From Candidatus Moraniibacteriota bacterium (GTDB lineage Bacteria; Patescibacteriota; Minisyncoccia; Moranbacterales; UBA1568), in contig JAGOSP010000004.1 of the NCBI GenBank assembly GCA_018062205.1, positions 198 through 64,197 of the forward strand: DNA of 64,000 nucleotides. Direction: 5' to 3'. The translations under genes were made by a program, and so were the position numbers. The notes under the pieces were generated by a model. The model saw nothing but the letters and a program-made list of their open reading frames with translations. It made no database searches and was not told the DNA's origin. This document shows, piece by piece, positions 49,412-53,925 of this stretch (its first letter is position 1; every line of letters starts with the position of its first letter).

Positions 49412-50713
49412 ATGCACCAAGTATCAGAAATGAGCGCATTCAGTATTAAAGAAATTACCAAGATTGAAGGATCAGCAGGACTTGAGGTGCTTGTTGAGGA
49501 TGGCAAGGTGACATCTGTGCAGTTTGCTATCAATGAATACAAGCGCTTCTTTACTCAGGCGATGGTGGGCAAGTCTATTATGGCGATTCCACAAATGCTG
49601 GCACGTATTTGCGGTACCTGTTCCAATGCGCATCTTATGGCAAGTATTGAAGCGGTCGAGAAGGGCTTTGGACTCCAGCCAACCGAACAAACGAAACTGC
49701 TCCGCACATTAGCGTATCATGGTTTGATTATTCGTGATCATGCGCTCCATCTGTATATCTTTGTGGCACCGGATTTTTTTGGGAAAGATTCTTTGCTTGC
49801 TTTTGATGAAAATGATCCAGCACAGCATGATGTTTTGCATGATGCATTTGCTATCAAATCAGTTGGGAATCACCTTTCGATTTTAGCAGGCGGACGAAGT
49901 GTCCATGCGCCTTTTCTTATGCCAGGTGGTTTTGCCAAAGTTCCTGAGAAGGAGGAAATGGAGAAATGTCTGGAAGAACTCAAAGCTATTCGGCCAACGA
50001 TACTCCGTTCAATTGAGTTATTCATGAATTGCCCGTTTTCTTTTATTCGTGAAACCAACTATATTGGTCTGAAGTCCACCCCATTTTCGTATTTCGAAGG
50101 AGAACTCTGGGATATGAATGGAAAAATCTGTGATGAGAGTGGATACCGCAGTCATCTTGAGCACGTTGTCATTCCCTATTCACAGGCTTCCGGATACACG
50201 TTTGATGGGAAGGTATTTCGAGTTGGTGCACTTGCTCGGGTCAATCTCAACAAAGATGCTTTTCATCCGAATACACGGCGCGATGCAGCCGAAGCACTCA
50301 AGCGTTTCCCGTCCCATGACGTTTACGATAATTGTTTGGCGCAAGCGATTGCTATTCTTCATTCAGTTGATGAATCGATTGATATTCTCTCCACAGCAAC
50401 TTTTGCGAAAGAACCTTTGCAACAAATAGTACCAAGGGAAACAGTGTGTGTCGGTGTGGTGGAAGCACCGCGCGGTACGCTGTATCATAAATATGAGACG
50501 GATGCGAAGGGTGTTGTTACTCATGGCGAAGTGATTGTACCGACTGGGCAGAATCAAATTACGGTCGAGCAAGATCTCGGAAAATTTATTCAGGACAACC
50601 TTGCTCTTGATCGTGATGCTCTCGGATTGGAGTGTGAAAAAATCATTCGCGCCTATGACCCTTGCATGAGCTGTGCCTCACACTTCCTCAAACTCAAAAT
50701 CCGCGAGATCTGA
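49412..50713 (+). CDS. [NiFe] hydrogenase large subunit (group 3-like)
   Basis: N-terminal RICGTCSNAH (L1, RxCGxCxxxH). C-terminal DPCMSCASH (L2) with a 9-residue tail consistent with C-terminal processing. Confidence 0.85.
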   Translation: MHQVSEMSAFSIKEITKIEGSAGLEVLVEDGKVTSVQFAINEYKRFFTQAMVGKSIMAIPQMLARICGTCSNAHLMASIEAVEKGFGLQPTEQTKLLRTLAYHGLIIRDHALHLYIFVAPDFFGKDSLLAFDENDPAQHDVLHDAFAIKSVGNHLSILAGGRSVHAPFLMPGGFAKVPEKEEMEKCLEELKAIRPTILRSIELFMNCPFSFIRETNYIGLKSTPFSYFEGELWDMNGKICDESGYRSHLEHVVIPYSQASGYTFDGKVFRVGALARVNLNKDAFHPNTRRDAAEALKRFPSHDVYDNCLAQAIAILHSVDESIDILSTATFAKEPLQQIVPRETVCVGVVEAPRGTLYHKYETDAKGVVTHGEVIVPTGQNQITVEQDLGKFIQDNLALDRDALGLECEKIIRAYDPCMSCASHFLKLKIREI

Positions 50714-50857: not shown

Positions 50858-52636
50858 GTGTCTGCATTGAGAATAATGAGGATGTCCAAGTTACAGAAAA
50901 TAGGGAGGTTTTTAGAATGCCATTCGATAGGAGTTTTTGCTGTGACCATGGCAATGTCCGTCTTCCTTCTTTTTGATCCATTGGGTCAGCGGGCTTGGGA
51001 TACTTTTTTTACTAATAATGAAAAAGTGTTGGAGATTTATTGGCAAACGTTGACCCTTCTTTTGGTGATATTGATTCCGGTTACAGGGGCTGTTATTGGG
51101 AAATTAGATAAAAAATTTCCTGAGTTTGGAGCGAGAATTTTTTTTCAGATAGTGGCGCGTGTGAGACAGTTTTGGATACTGATTCCATTTAGCTTCCTTC
51201 TTTTTTTCGCAAGAGTTCCAGTGCAAAATATGCCGCCAGAAGGCATTTCAGTAAATCTCGAAGTTTTGAGGATTATCCATTACCTTTTGTTCGTTTTATG
51301 GTGTTTTCTCTTTTGGGGATTTTTTGAAATCCTGAGAAAGTCGGTTGCGCTTTTCGTGGACTTAGGTGATTTACAAAACGAAGTATTCTATAGGCACCTT
51401 TCGGAGTATAGTCGGCAACAGAAAACAATGAGTGATGATGAAAATGAGGGACCAGCATGGAAACTACTTTGGGACGGTATTGACGTAAAAAATGATAAGT
51501 GGCACCGAAAATTTCTGCTTCTCTTTTGGAAGCGACAGGAAGAATTGATTGGGAATAAGCAATATCTTCTGGCCACTACATTGCTGGAGAGTTTTTCGCA
51601 ACGGTATCTGACTTTTGGTGACGGTCAGAAGCAAATCGATGTTGCCCGACAGATGAATGCACGGAAACGCTGGCTTTGGTTTTGCGAAAAACAGATGAAT
51701 GATAAAACAGAAAATCCTTATGCCATTGCTATTCGACTGTTAGATATTCATTTTTCCACATGGCGAAATCTTGAGGAAATCAAAAATCCTGGGAATGGAA
51801 ATAATATGGACCCTAAAAAACGGGGCAGGTTGAGTACTTTGCAGCGCCTCGTACGTAGCATGCTCGAAACATTGTTTCGTGATGAGCTTGGTAAGACTGA
51901 TGATTATTACGACTCTTTTTTTCGTTGTCTCACGGGATTCTTCGATACCGTTGCTCCAGATAAATCCACTTTGTCCCCAAAAAAGTATCAAGAATATCTA
52001 GAGAGTCTTCCTGTCTACCGGCCAGTTTTTGAGGCTGCTTATAACTCTCATCTTTCCAATTATGAACCACATGCGGAAGGGTCGGGCTTCCCAAATCAGT
52101 GGAGGGTGCTAGAGGCGTGCTTGGAGCAGACTAATAGTATAGACAGTGTACAGCGTCGTGTGTGGCTCGAACAGTTCTGTACATGGTCTCGAGACCACAT
52201 TGATCACGGGAAGAAAGAGTGGGACAACGCTTTAGATGGAGCACTCAAGATGTTGTTTCCGGAGGCATACGCACCCTGGATGGCTTTCGCATTCGCTTAC
52301 AGAGCGCTTGCCTTTGGAAAGAGTCAAATAGCAGGACGTTGTTCCTGGAACCGAAATTTTGGGTATGATTCTCTTCTTATTGATATGTCTGATATGCCAG
52401 AAGAGGGGTGGGAACAAAAACACGATGAACGAATGATGAAAGTGACGCGGGAGCGTCAGACAATAGCAGTAACAATTATTCAGAAGTTCAGATTTTTTGG
52501 TAAACCAGGCCAAATAACAAATTTGATAGCGGAATTAGAAAGCCTTTCAGGAACGCTTTCTGGTGATTCGGAGAGTGAGAATAATCGTCGAGAAATACTC
52601 GAAATGCTTCAGGAAATAGCGAAATCTTCCCCCTGA
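50858..52636 (+). CDS. large hypothetical protein with N-terminal multi-TM region and alpha-helical cytoplasmic domain
   Basis: 592 aa. Four or five N-terminal hydrophobic helices, then an Arg/Glu/Trp-rich helical region. No known motif recognised. Confidence 0.5.
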   Translation: MSALRIMRMSKLQKIGRFLECHSIGVFAVTMAMSVFLLFDPLGQRAWDTFFTNNEKVLEIYWQTLTLLLVILIPVTGAVIGKLDKKFPEFGARIFFQIVARVRQFWILIPFSFLLFFARVPVQNMPPEGISVNLEVLRIIHYLLFVLWCFLFWGFFEILRKSVALFVDLGDLQNEVFYRHLSEYSRQQKTMSDDENEGPAWKLLWDGIDVKNDKWHRKFLLLFWKRQEELIGNKQYLLATTLLESFSQRYLTFGDGQKQIDVARQMNARKRWLWFCEKQMNDKTENPYAIAIRLLDIHFSTWRNLEEIKNPGNGNNMDPKKRGRLSTLQRLVRSMLETLFRDELGKTDDYYDSFFRCLTGFFDTVAPDKSTLSPKKYQEYLESLPVYRPVFEAAYNSHLSNYEPHAEGSGFPNQWRVLEACLEQTNSIDSVQRRVWLEQFCTWSRDHIDHGKKEWDNALDGALKMLFPEAYAPWMAFAFAYRALAFGKSQIAGRCSWNRNFGYDSLLIDMSDMPEEGWEQKHDERMMKVTRERQTIAVTIIQKFRFFGKPGQITNLIAELESLSGTLSGDSESENNRREILEMLQEIAKSSP

Positions 52637-52799: not shown

Positions 52800-52833
52800 G
52801 TATCATAATAAGACGGCCGTCTGATTATGATAC
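52800..52833. repeat. 34-bp palindrome copy A (GTATCATAATAAGACGG|CCGTCTGATTATGATAC)
   Basis: A 17-bp arm inverted repeat with one mismatch, 77 nt upstream of the PaaX-like gene start. Confidence 0.7.
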
Positions 52834-52909
52834 AATGAGAAAGGTGCGAGTAGAGATTTGAAAGACGAAATAGATGAAATTATATTGAAATTCATAACGG
52901 GAAAGAAGT

Positions 52910-53485
52910 ATGTATAAACTTGGTCCGGTACAACAGAAAGTTTTATTAGTACTCGCAGGAGTAGTTATTCTCGGGACAGAGACATCTTCACTGCGGTATT
53001 ATCAGAAATTGAGAATGCTTTACCGTGGATGGAAAAAGATTGATCAGCGTAACTTTAATCGTTCCGTTCATCGATTAAGTGAACAGAAATTGGTGCAAGA
53101 AGTTTCGCTTGCCGATGGATCATTTCGATTAGTATTGACCAAAGAAGGAGCGAGGCAGGCAAAAATTCAAGCTCTATTTGGATCAAAAATACATTTTAAG
53201 CGTCCGAAGCAGTGGGATAAAAAATGGCGTATCGTTCTGTTTGATATCCCAGAAAAGGAGAGAGGGTTTCGTACGGTATTACGGGAACATTTACAGGAAC
53301 TCCATTTTTTTAAATTGCAGCAGAGTGTGTTTGTTTCACCTTTCCCGTGCGAAAAACCAATTATGGAACTTGTAGCACTGTATGGAGCGGAAGTTCATGT
53401 GAGGATTATGACTGCTCATTGGATTGATAATGAAACAAAACTTAAAAAACATTTCTTTAAGCCACCGAAGAAAAAAGTATCATAA
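52910..53485 (+). CDS. PaaX-family transcriptional regulator-like protein (wHTH + PaaX_C)
   Basis: WDKKWRIVLFDIPEKERGFRTVLREHLQELHFFKLQQSVFVSP matches the PaaX C-domain pattern W..W..V.Y.VPE..R..R..LR..L..LGF..L....WVSP. The N-terminus is wHTH-like. Confidence 0.55.
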   Translation: MYKLGPVQQKVLLVLAGVVILGTETSSLRYYQKLRMLYRGWKKIDQRNFNRSVHRLSEQKLVQEVSLADGSFRLVLTKEGARQAKIQALFGSKIHFKRPKQWDKKWRIVLFDIPEKERGFRTVLREHLQELHFFKLQQSVFVSPFPCEKPIMELVALYGAEVHVRIMTAHWIDNETKLKKHFFKPPKKKVS

Positions 53486-53510
53486 TATGACGACCGTCAT
53501 ATTATGATAC
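53477..53510. repeat. 34-bp palindrome copy B (GTATCATAATATGACGA|CCGTCATATTATGATAC)
   Basis: A 17-bp arm inverted repeat (16 paired positions, central A/C not paired). It overlaps the last three codons of the PaaX-like gene, with AAAAAA upstream and TTTT downstream. Confidence 0.7.
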
Positions 53511-53556
53511 TTTTGGGTTTAGGATTGAGAGAAGGAGGTTCTATTGCTGAGGGCTT

Positions 53557-53925
53557 CTAGAGGAGGGCGATGATGGCAGGAAGGACGGTTTTTGCATCAC
53601 TTCCCATGGGGACGCCGATGATGCGGATATGAATATTTGGTTGGAGTTTTTTGATAAGCAGAAGATAGGAGGAGAGATCAAAATCATGTGTGGTGGCACG
53701 TGCGGCCGTGGCTTCAATTTCATCGAGCGTGATATCTCGTACAGCTTTTAATCCGTCTACAGTGTCGAGAGCAATAAAATTTTCATTTTCTTCTGGGAGG
53801 TCAAGTTCGTTCGGGTCAGTAAAGAGGAAGGTATGTTGCGGGCAGGCCTCCTGAAGACGCGGTAAAAGCACTACGGGTAAGGCGTCAAAAGGAAGATCGG
53901 GATTGCCAAAAATATGAATCAGCAT
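53557..53925 (-). CDS. hydrogenase maturation endopeptidase (HycI/HybD/HoxW-like)
   Basis: 122 aa. The pattern MLIHIFGNPDLPFDALPVVLLPRL ... HDFDLSSYLL ... IIGVPMG is typical of the family. Confidence 0.7.
   Translation of the reverse strand: MLIHIFGNPDLPFDALPVVLLPRLQEACPQHTFLFTDPNELDLPEENENFIALDTVDGLKAVRDITLDEIEATAARATTHDFDLSSYLLLIKKLQPNIHIRIIGVPMGSDAKTVLPAIIALL

Follow-up and report, generated by a model that had tools for sequence, protein, structure and literature searches.

What role do two near-copies of a 34-bp palindrome play on either side of a small regulator gene in a Candidatus Moraniibacteriota bacterium? The locus lies in a 64,000-nucleotide stretch of contig JAGOSP010000004.1 (assembly GCA_018062205.1, positions 198 to 64,197; hereafter the window), and an initial annotation had suggested that the palindromes might be operators of the winged helix-turn-helix (wHTH) regulator that they enclose, bidirectional terminators, or the inverted ends of a small mobile cassette. 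Comparison with relatives leads us to favor the first of these, with about an even chance of being right, i.e., that the palindromes are cognate operators of a dimeric, autoregulated wHTH regulator, that the downstream copy may also form a terminator-like hairpin, and that a few extra targets lie elsewhere. The features at issue are the following.

52800-52833, no strand: palindrome copy A (upstream site), 34 bp, GTATCATAATAAGACGGCCGTCTGATTATGATAC, with one asymmetric pair (A11/G24)
52828-52836, plus strand: extended -10-like motif TGATACAAT, candidate promoter P1 predicted from the sequence, made of the right arm of copy A and the flanking AAT
52858-52886, plus strand: alternative sigma-70-like promoter TTGAAA-17-TATATT, downstream of copy A and ahead of the start codon, a consensus match only (10/12)
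52910-53485, plus strand: gene for a winged-helix plus Cas2-like (PaaX_M) protein of 191 aa (Pfam, AlphaFold, Foldseek)
53471-53514, no strand: copy B plus its A6/T4 flanks, a terminator-like hairpin with a 20-bp stem between convergent genes
53477-53510, no strand: palindrome copy B (downstream site), GTATCATAATATGACGACCGTCATATTATGATAC, with its asymmetry at the central A17/C18

Both palindromes lie where the initial annotation had placed them, 677 bp apart with the regulator gene between, and their arms and differences are as it described: the outer 10-nt arms are identical and each inner arm has two differences. Identity over the 34 nt is 88%, and each copy has a single internal asymmetry. 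Between copy A and the ATG at 52910 lie 76 nt. Copy B, as had also been reported, sits at the gene end with A6 and T4 runs beside it, and the final two sense codons of the gene and its stop (GTA TCA TAA) fall within it; with the flanks its stem reaches 20 bp (53473-53492 / 53495-53514, 100% complementary), with A6 on one side and T4 on the other. The predicted RNA hairpins have energies of -16.8 kcal/mol for copy A (z -4.9) and -26.1 kcal/mol for copy B (z -7.3), the latter on the plus strand and -23.4 kcal/mol on the minus strand. No palindrome site besides these two was found in the 64-kb window at up to three mismatches (0 in 100 shuffles), nor in a looser arm scan allowing up to four.

The same layout was present in all relatives examined. 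DNA around homologues was fetched independently of any DNA pattern, and the gene was bracketed by two site copies in 15/15 genomes (window included) from several Patescibacteria lineages; the downstream copy begins within ~30 nt of the stop codon, often overlapping it. Within the window clade (n = 10: the window, L003, L020, L022, L026, L028, L031, L042, L048, and L049), each genome has one copy upstream of the gene and the other at or near the stop codon; in four genomes the downstream copy begins exactly 9 nt before the gene end, a register that the window shares with L020, L026, and L048. The five distant members (L035, L050, L051, L052, and L053) are each bracketed by their own, different inverted-repeat site of 31-38 nt. 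The site sequence thus changes with the protein clade, and the spacing between the two sites (560-785 bp) is not conserved. A scan of species-representative genomes with only the outer arms returned 25 loci, ~16 of them Moranbacteria/Patescibacteria metagenome-assembled genomes (MAGs; some labelled Bdellovibrionales), and the consensus of their sites is GTATCATAATTCCACGGCCGTGGAATTATGATAC.

Site and gene are also linked within single genomes. L035 and L018 belong to one genome, where a GTATCATAAT-type site lies near RNase J and the sites on either side of a 40%-identical paralogue are of the TTTATTCTACGCGGCCGCGTAGAATAAA type; the sites are therefore specific to the flanked gene copy and not to the genome, and this is the strongest argument for a cognate protein-site pair. 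Moreover, copies vary in concert: on a 500-kb contig, the two that flank the gene (L048, 9843 and 10628) share the variant GTGTCATAATTCCGCGGCCGCGGAATTATGACAC, and a copy 190 kb away on the same contig, inside an O-antigen-ligase gene (L046, 10860), has the same variant (GTGTCATAATTCCGCGG...). Similarly, L028 contains three identical TCCGCGG-type copies, while L011 and L016 have a common TTCTCGA type. The two L052 copies are identical over 38/38 nt despite a poor hairpin, being self-complementary in the outer 7 nt and the core ACGGCCGT only, and this identity favors recognition of sequence over structure; the L053 site is also a poor hairpin. A further symmetric variant, GTAACATAAT...ATTATGTTAC, was observed beside the regulator in three genomes (L020 1981-2014, L026 3611-3644, and L048 10997-11030), where it accompanies the GTATCATAAT or GTGTCATAAT type.

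The enclosed protein combines two domains. Residues 100-173 match Pfam PF20803 (PaaX_M, the Cas2-like central domain of PaaX; E 2.7e-21), and the AlphaFold model (predicted local distance difference test score 75) has a wHTH at residues 6-90, with three helices and a beta-wing, followed by a ferredoxin/Cas2 fold at 106-182. The best Foldseek matches were E. coli PaaX (8a39, top), Rv0674, and Cas2 proteins, all with weak E-values, and profile comparison gave weak matches to the wHTH regulators QsrR and YodB; sequence search of the PDB returned no significant match, and the link to PaaX and Cas2 comes from the fold search only. The family is large and consists of similar proteins of 180-200 aa: at 50% identity, 3,072 cluster representatives match at E<=1e-3 and 1,340 do so at E<=1e-10. 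Its members share the invariant motif W-R-x3-FDIPE...LQxSVF, in which the Cas2-type aspartate of FDIPE is invariant. Named members come from the Patescibacteria lineages Moranbacteria, Tagabacteria, Taylorbacteria, Pacebacteria, and Berkelbacteria. A single member was found in the window, and one per locus examined.

PaaX itself provides the precedent, and the window protein has a wHTH and a PaaX-type middle domain. E. coli PaaX is autorepressing, its operator is a long-spaced inverted repeat (TGATTC-N27-GAATCA), and its helical C-terminal domain binds phenylacetyl-CoA (PMC9493321). The order of the N-terminal winged helix and the Cas2-like PaaX_M domain is the same in both proteins. Unlike PaaX, however, the window protein is 191 aa long and stops just after the Cas2-like domain, without the C-terminal domain; no paa catabolic genes flank it in the window, and the neighborhoods of its relatives hold unrelated housekeeping or defense genes; and its site is a full 34-bp palindrome with a second copy at the stop codon. 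We rejected PaaX orthology given the missing domain and a score of 28.4 bits against a cut-off of 264.55 for TIGR02277, the PaaX equivalog model. A genuine Cas2 was likewise rejected: the Cas2 model TIGR01573 covers residues 106-143 only (~38 residues; 26.3 bits against a cut-off of 24.5), and the domain is fused to a wHTH. The protein does share with Cas2 the ferredoxin-like fold and the beta1 ...FDI... aspartate motif, but Cas2 is typically a stand-alone protein of ~90-100 aa encoded beside cas1, and in a CRISPR array spacers of 25-50 nt separate the repeats, whereas the two repeats here are 677 bp apart and enclose a gene. As for the arrangement, repressor genes enclosed by two looping operators are known from lambda CI with OL/OR and also from GalR and DeoR. 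The locus resembles these in that the gene of a regulator is enclosed by two copies of its putative operator, the upstream one overlapping a candidate promoter, and it differs in that the second site falls exactly at the stop codon and that the spacing of 560-785 bp is not conserved.

In the mechanism that we favor, the N-terminal winged helix of the ~190-aa regulator would read DNA, and the Cas2-like domain, a dimerization module in PaaX, would make it a symmetric dimer. Such a dimer would suit the symmetry of the site, in which two conserved CATAAT blocks lie 20 bp apart around a CG-rich center. With copy A overlapping or abutting the promoter of the gene, the regulator would repress its own synthesis, whereas copy B would be a second operator at the 3' end that may loop with copy A or block incoming convergent transcription, and that, with its A/T-run flanks, may double as a hairpin terminator; the few further copies per genome would be additional targets. 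This reading is supported by the 15/15 brackets, the site sequence that follows the clade, the concerted, genome-specific variants, the -10-like motif that overlaps the upstream site, and the low copy number. The comparative data thus strengthen the proposal of autoregulatory operators in the initial annotation, whereas its companion proposal, control of the convergent gene, found no evidence.

In most clades, the gene-proximal arm of the upstream copy forms part of an extended -10-like motif. AAT follows this copy in 7/9 window-clade genomes compared, yielding TGATACAAT, and TGnTAnAAT-like motifs also overlap the upstream site in L050, L052, and L053. T-runs follow 5/8 downstream copies in the window clade and 0/4 in other clades. 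Copy B, with A6, a 20-bp stem, and T4 between convergent genes, is plausibly also a terminator; an intrinsic terminator has a GC-rich stem with a U-run directly behind it, whereas the base of the copy B stem is AT-rich, and a consensus terminator scan did not flag it. Copy A, which lacks a T-run, was not flagged either. Across the sites compared, termination is not the family-wide function: T-runs are missing from the other clades, where some sites also make poor hairpins. The bidirectional terminator that had been proposed therefore survives for copy B only and falls away for copy A and for relatives outside the clade.

Conservation within the site is blocky. Among 34 sites, G1, CATAAT (5-10), and CG (15-16) and their mirror positions show little or no variation, unlike the variable positions 2-4 and 11-14, a pattern that suggests protein contacts. 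At the variable positions, pairing is kept in 87% of cells, and double changes occur in 12 pairs; double-change cells numbered 58 against 20 expected, and 0/500 shuffles reached 58, with the caveats that many of the 34 sites were retrieved with fixed outer arms and that sites from one genome are not independent. As judged from this covariation, intrastrand pairing matters in the window clade, either functionally or mutationally. In general, template switching in quasi-palindromes can restore symmetry without selection. Pairing is not kept in other clades, as L052 exemplifies, and one-sided mismatches of the G.U and A.C kinds show no strand bias, although the cases are few (sense-strand U.G wobble in L047 and L003; sense-strand A.C in L004 and L042).

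Additional copies are few. Exact-arm matches in the scan of species-representative genomes amounted to 1-3 per genome, known copies are ~1-4 per genome, and no extra site was found in ~170 kb of relatives' DNA that had been fetched for other reasons. The initial annotation had named, as the outcome that would speak against it, a generic repeat at many unrelated sites with no association to this gene; what we found were few copies, clustered at the regulator, and a generic repetitive extragenic palindrome (REP)-like repeat was therefore rejected. About half of the solo copies lie upstream of a gene, at 20-170 nt, and some are at the 3' ends of unrelated genes. Their neighbors are unrelated to each other (TsaE|PolA, RNase J|HAD, MFS>|<TfoX, ZIP>|<Zn-ribbon, a Type ISP restriction enzyme, a glyoxalase, and NUDIX). 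One group of copies lies in frame within Wzy_C O-antigen-ligase genes:

L012 2290-2323: in-frame palindrome in Wzy_C
L017 1896-1929: in-frame palindrome in Wzy_C
L046 10860-10893: in-frame palindrome in Wzy_C
L047 2361-2402: in-frame palindrome in Wzy_C

The insert is carried by ~17/121 Wzy_C orthologues and is lacking in the rest. Insert-bearing orthologues group together, interleaved with insert-less ones, and a single gain with losses and repeated gain are indistinguishable. Symmetry at this position has been retained via compensatory changes: in L046, two double changes have altered the peptide (W to R) and left the palindrome perfect, and the L047 copy is a 42-nt palindrome with one T.G pair. 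In L012 and L017 the copy is followed by ATTTTT, which gives it the look of a terminator inside a coding region.

Several of these observations weigh against the operator reading. At least five extra copies (L015, L016, L022, L048, and copy B of the window) occupy gaps between convergent genes, positions at which a promoter would not be expected, the neighbors of solo sites share no functional theme, and one copy lies in frame within the Wzy_C open reading frame (ORF), encoding the peptide C-IIIPRPWNYDT (L012, L017). A conserved operator at a stop codon has no established rationale. Compensatory symmetry occurs at positions that vary between sites of one genome (L026, L048), which a dimer reading fixed bases does not predict. 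The promoter assignment is ambiguous between two candidates, and the downstream sigma-70-like match would put copy A near -77. The convergent 3'-end copies, the Wzy_C copy, and the symmetry at within-genome-variable positions, which the operator model leaves unexplained, would be accounted for by a REP-like or cassette-type system, and also by a role at the RNA level.

REPtrons are a comparison for the former. In these, the REP-associated tyrosine transposase (RAYT) is an HUH/Y1 transposase, and REP copies number tens to hundreds per genome. An analogous system here, which we consider unlikely, would have the bracketed protein maintain, copy, or recombine hairpin-forming elements, with the Cas2-like domain as nuclease, the gene as a REPtron analogue, and the solo copies as progeny or scars. 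There are several points of likeness: a single-copy gene is flanked by its own clade-specific palindromes of 30-40 bp, as RAYT genes are by REPs; the extra copies are extragenic, often 3' or convergent, come in genome-specific variants, and lack a functional theme; compensatory evolution preserves pairing; the Wzy_C copy is confined to a fraction of orthologues; runs of three palindromes separate small ORFs beside the regulator in L026, L028, and L048; and the Cas2-type FDIPE aspartate is invariant. On the other hand, Pfam, NCBIfam, and fold searches found only wHTH, PaaX_M, and Cas2, and no HUH/Y1 or other known transposase fold; copies are a handful per genome, with none in the untargeted DNA; sites in some clades (L052, L053) are poor hairpins; and the protein shows the strong conservation of a host gene. 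The Wzy_C copy also recalls the Rickettsia palindromic elements, which are in-frame gene insertions of ~100-150 bp, in that it is read through in frame in only some orthologues; unlike them, it is 34-44 bp long, has a single insertion site, and has been kept a perfect palindrome by compensatory change over deep divergence.

Traces of rearrangement bear on the same question. In L057 (JGI 3300056850, a 216-kb contig), a related strain, copy A is flipped: it reads GTATCATAATCAGACGGCCGTCTTATTATGATAC, the exact reverse complement of the window copy, its flanks are unchanged, and the two changes of the flip are the only substitutions in 1 kb, which indicates that the palindrome interior was inverted in vivo. 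In addition, the order of the GIY-YIG, PaaX-like, and Cdd1 orthologues (82-85% identity) differs between L026 (3940-5300) and L028 (2340-3650), and the PaaX block, delimited by its palindromes, includes 23 nt ahead of the upstream site and 3 nt past the downstream one. Both events keep a recombination-type reading alive, and both can arise without a dedicated enzyme: any rearrangement that survives is expected to have its breakpoints beside the signals of a gene, and template switching can produce small hairpin inversions as well as symmetrization. A cassette swap between L026 and L027 was rejected, as these loci are collinear at 99% and their gene lists differ by gene calling. There was also no presence/absence polymorphism: the cassette is at the same place in 24/24 contigs that encode an identical 122-aa neighbor, so that the comparison with genomes lacking it, which the initial annotation had recommended, found no empty site within the species among these contigs.

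A bolder form of this idea, which we hold to be rather unlikely, is that the short wHTH-Cas2-like proteins of Patescibacteria (~3,000 clusters at 50% identity) and their flanking palindromes would constitute an undescribed protein/DNA-element partnership, like RAYT/REP or integron-like cassettes, in which the Cas2-like domain, as an active nuclease or recombination module, would act on the sites in their hairpin or cruciform state and so give rise to the flips, the reordering, the solo copies, and the Wzy_C copy. If true, this minority reading would make a Cas2-like fold the basis of a novel type of element/protein partnership and would bear on the origin of the Cas2 and PaaX domains.

A role at the RNA level is, in our estimate, quite unlikely. 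The palindromes would then act as transcript hairpins (terminators, 3'-end stabilizers, or processing sites), possibly bound by the RNA recognition motif-like Cas2 domain, and the DNA symmetry would be a by-product. The very stable predicted hairpins, the many copies directly after stop codons or between convergent genes, the T-runs after downstream copies in the clade, the strong compensatory covariation, and the sense-strand U.G wobbles would all fit. However, species whose proteins are 60-70% identical have kept the sequence of the outer arms and CG core, which is not the case for terminators, and ordinary GC-stem terminators in the same genomes look different (L048 13553-13582; L050 2365-2402). 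A -10 located in the arm of the upstream copy would leave that copy only partly transcribed; the other clades lack both T-runs and good stems; one-sided changes show no strand bias, with A.C on the sense strand in L004 and L042; an Rfam search found no known RNA family for the palindromes; and the terminator scan flagged neither copy.

Many insertion sequences have a promoter that overlaps the left repeat and a stop codon that overlaps the right one. A small insertion sequence with terminal inverted repeats and the regulator as its transposase would match this compact layout and the gene neighborhoods that differ between genera, but it is largely refuted by these comparisons and very improbable, given a cassette fixed at one locus in 24/24 contigs, one family member per locus examined and one in the window, no target duplications at the L026/L028 block boundaries, and copies that are direct repeats where their asymmetry is readable (L052, 38/38; L051, 90%). 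The initial suggestion of inverted ends of a mobile cassette thus loses its footing, on the fixed position and the direct orientation of the copies.

Other candidates were also discarded. A dif/Xer site was rejected on account of the overly long 14-bp center and the presence of several copies per genome, and a LexA box, considered for an S24 peptidase gene near the cassette in L026, was dropped since that gene is not consistent across genomes. A phage or viral origin was rejected as well: pattern matches in IMG/VR were by chance, and the sole homologue there is 5'-truncated with a degenerate downstream site.

We found no paper that describes the short wHTH-Cas2-like family or its sites. Patescibacteria (the Candidate Phyla Radiation) have small genomes, and their regulation is little known; here, a large uncharacterized family of 3,072 clusters is tied to a specific and easily recognized DNA site, which yields a directly testable regulator/operator pair and a simple rule, namely that the site of a member is found at both ends of its gene. 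An annotation error is corrected as well: NCBI labels the identical protein of a Candidatus Moranbacteria MAG 'CRISPR-associated endonuclease Cas2' because residues 106-143 score just above the Cas2 cut-off, and public labels across the family (P0001, P0003, P0248, and others) read either 'CRISPR-associated endonuclease Cas2' or 'PaaX'. The Cas2 naming is likely a systematic mis-annotation across Patescibacteria. No cas genes were found among the immediate neighbors of the cassette, the rest of the window not having been searched for cas1.

The window neighbors of the regulator are a NiFe hydrogenase subunit, two unknown proteins of 592 aa and 122 aa, and an extracytoplasmic function (ECF)-type sigma factor. 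Three of these genes have the following positions.

49412-50713, upstream of the cassette: NiFe hydrogenase large subunit gene
50858-52636, plus strand: 592-aa ORF between the NiFe hydrogenase large subunit gene and the cassette
53557-53925, minus strand: convergent 122-aa gene downstream of copy B

The 592-aa ORF (50858-52636) had no family match at all. The 122-aa gene had been called a hydrogenase protease, a name that the searches did not bear out: it has no Pfam family, and its sole NCBIfam match (E 0.043, 13 bits) falls well short of the threshold.

Similar arms also occur outside this group. The following palindrome loci are in Clostridium genomes, where no PaaX-like gene was detectable nearby; the L008 copy lies between ORFs of 610 aa and 429 aa.

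L006 7161-7194: Clostridium palindrome
L008 3814-3847: Clostridium palindrome
L009 1088-1121: Clostridium palindrome
L019 2420-2453: Clostridium palindrome
L025 3362-3395: Clostridium palindrome

Several Clostridium genomes have in common a 54-bp perfect palindrome, GAATAGAACAGTATCATAATGAGAATTAATTCTCATTATGATACTGTTCTATTC, with the same outer GTATCATAAT arms and a different center. Finally, on an IMG/VR contig classed as viral (L066 3001-3480), a 5'-truncated homologue of the regulator, which is probably a pseudogene, keeps only the right half of its downstream palindrome (CCACGGCCGTGGAATTATGA).

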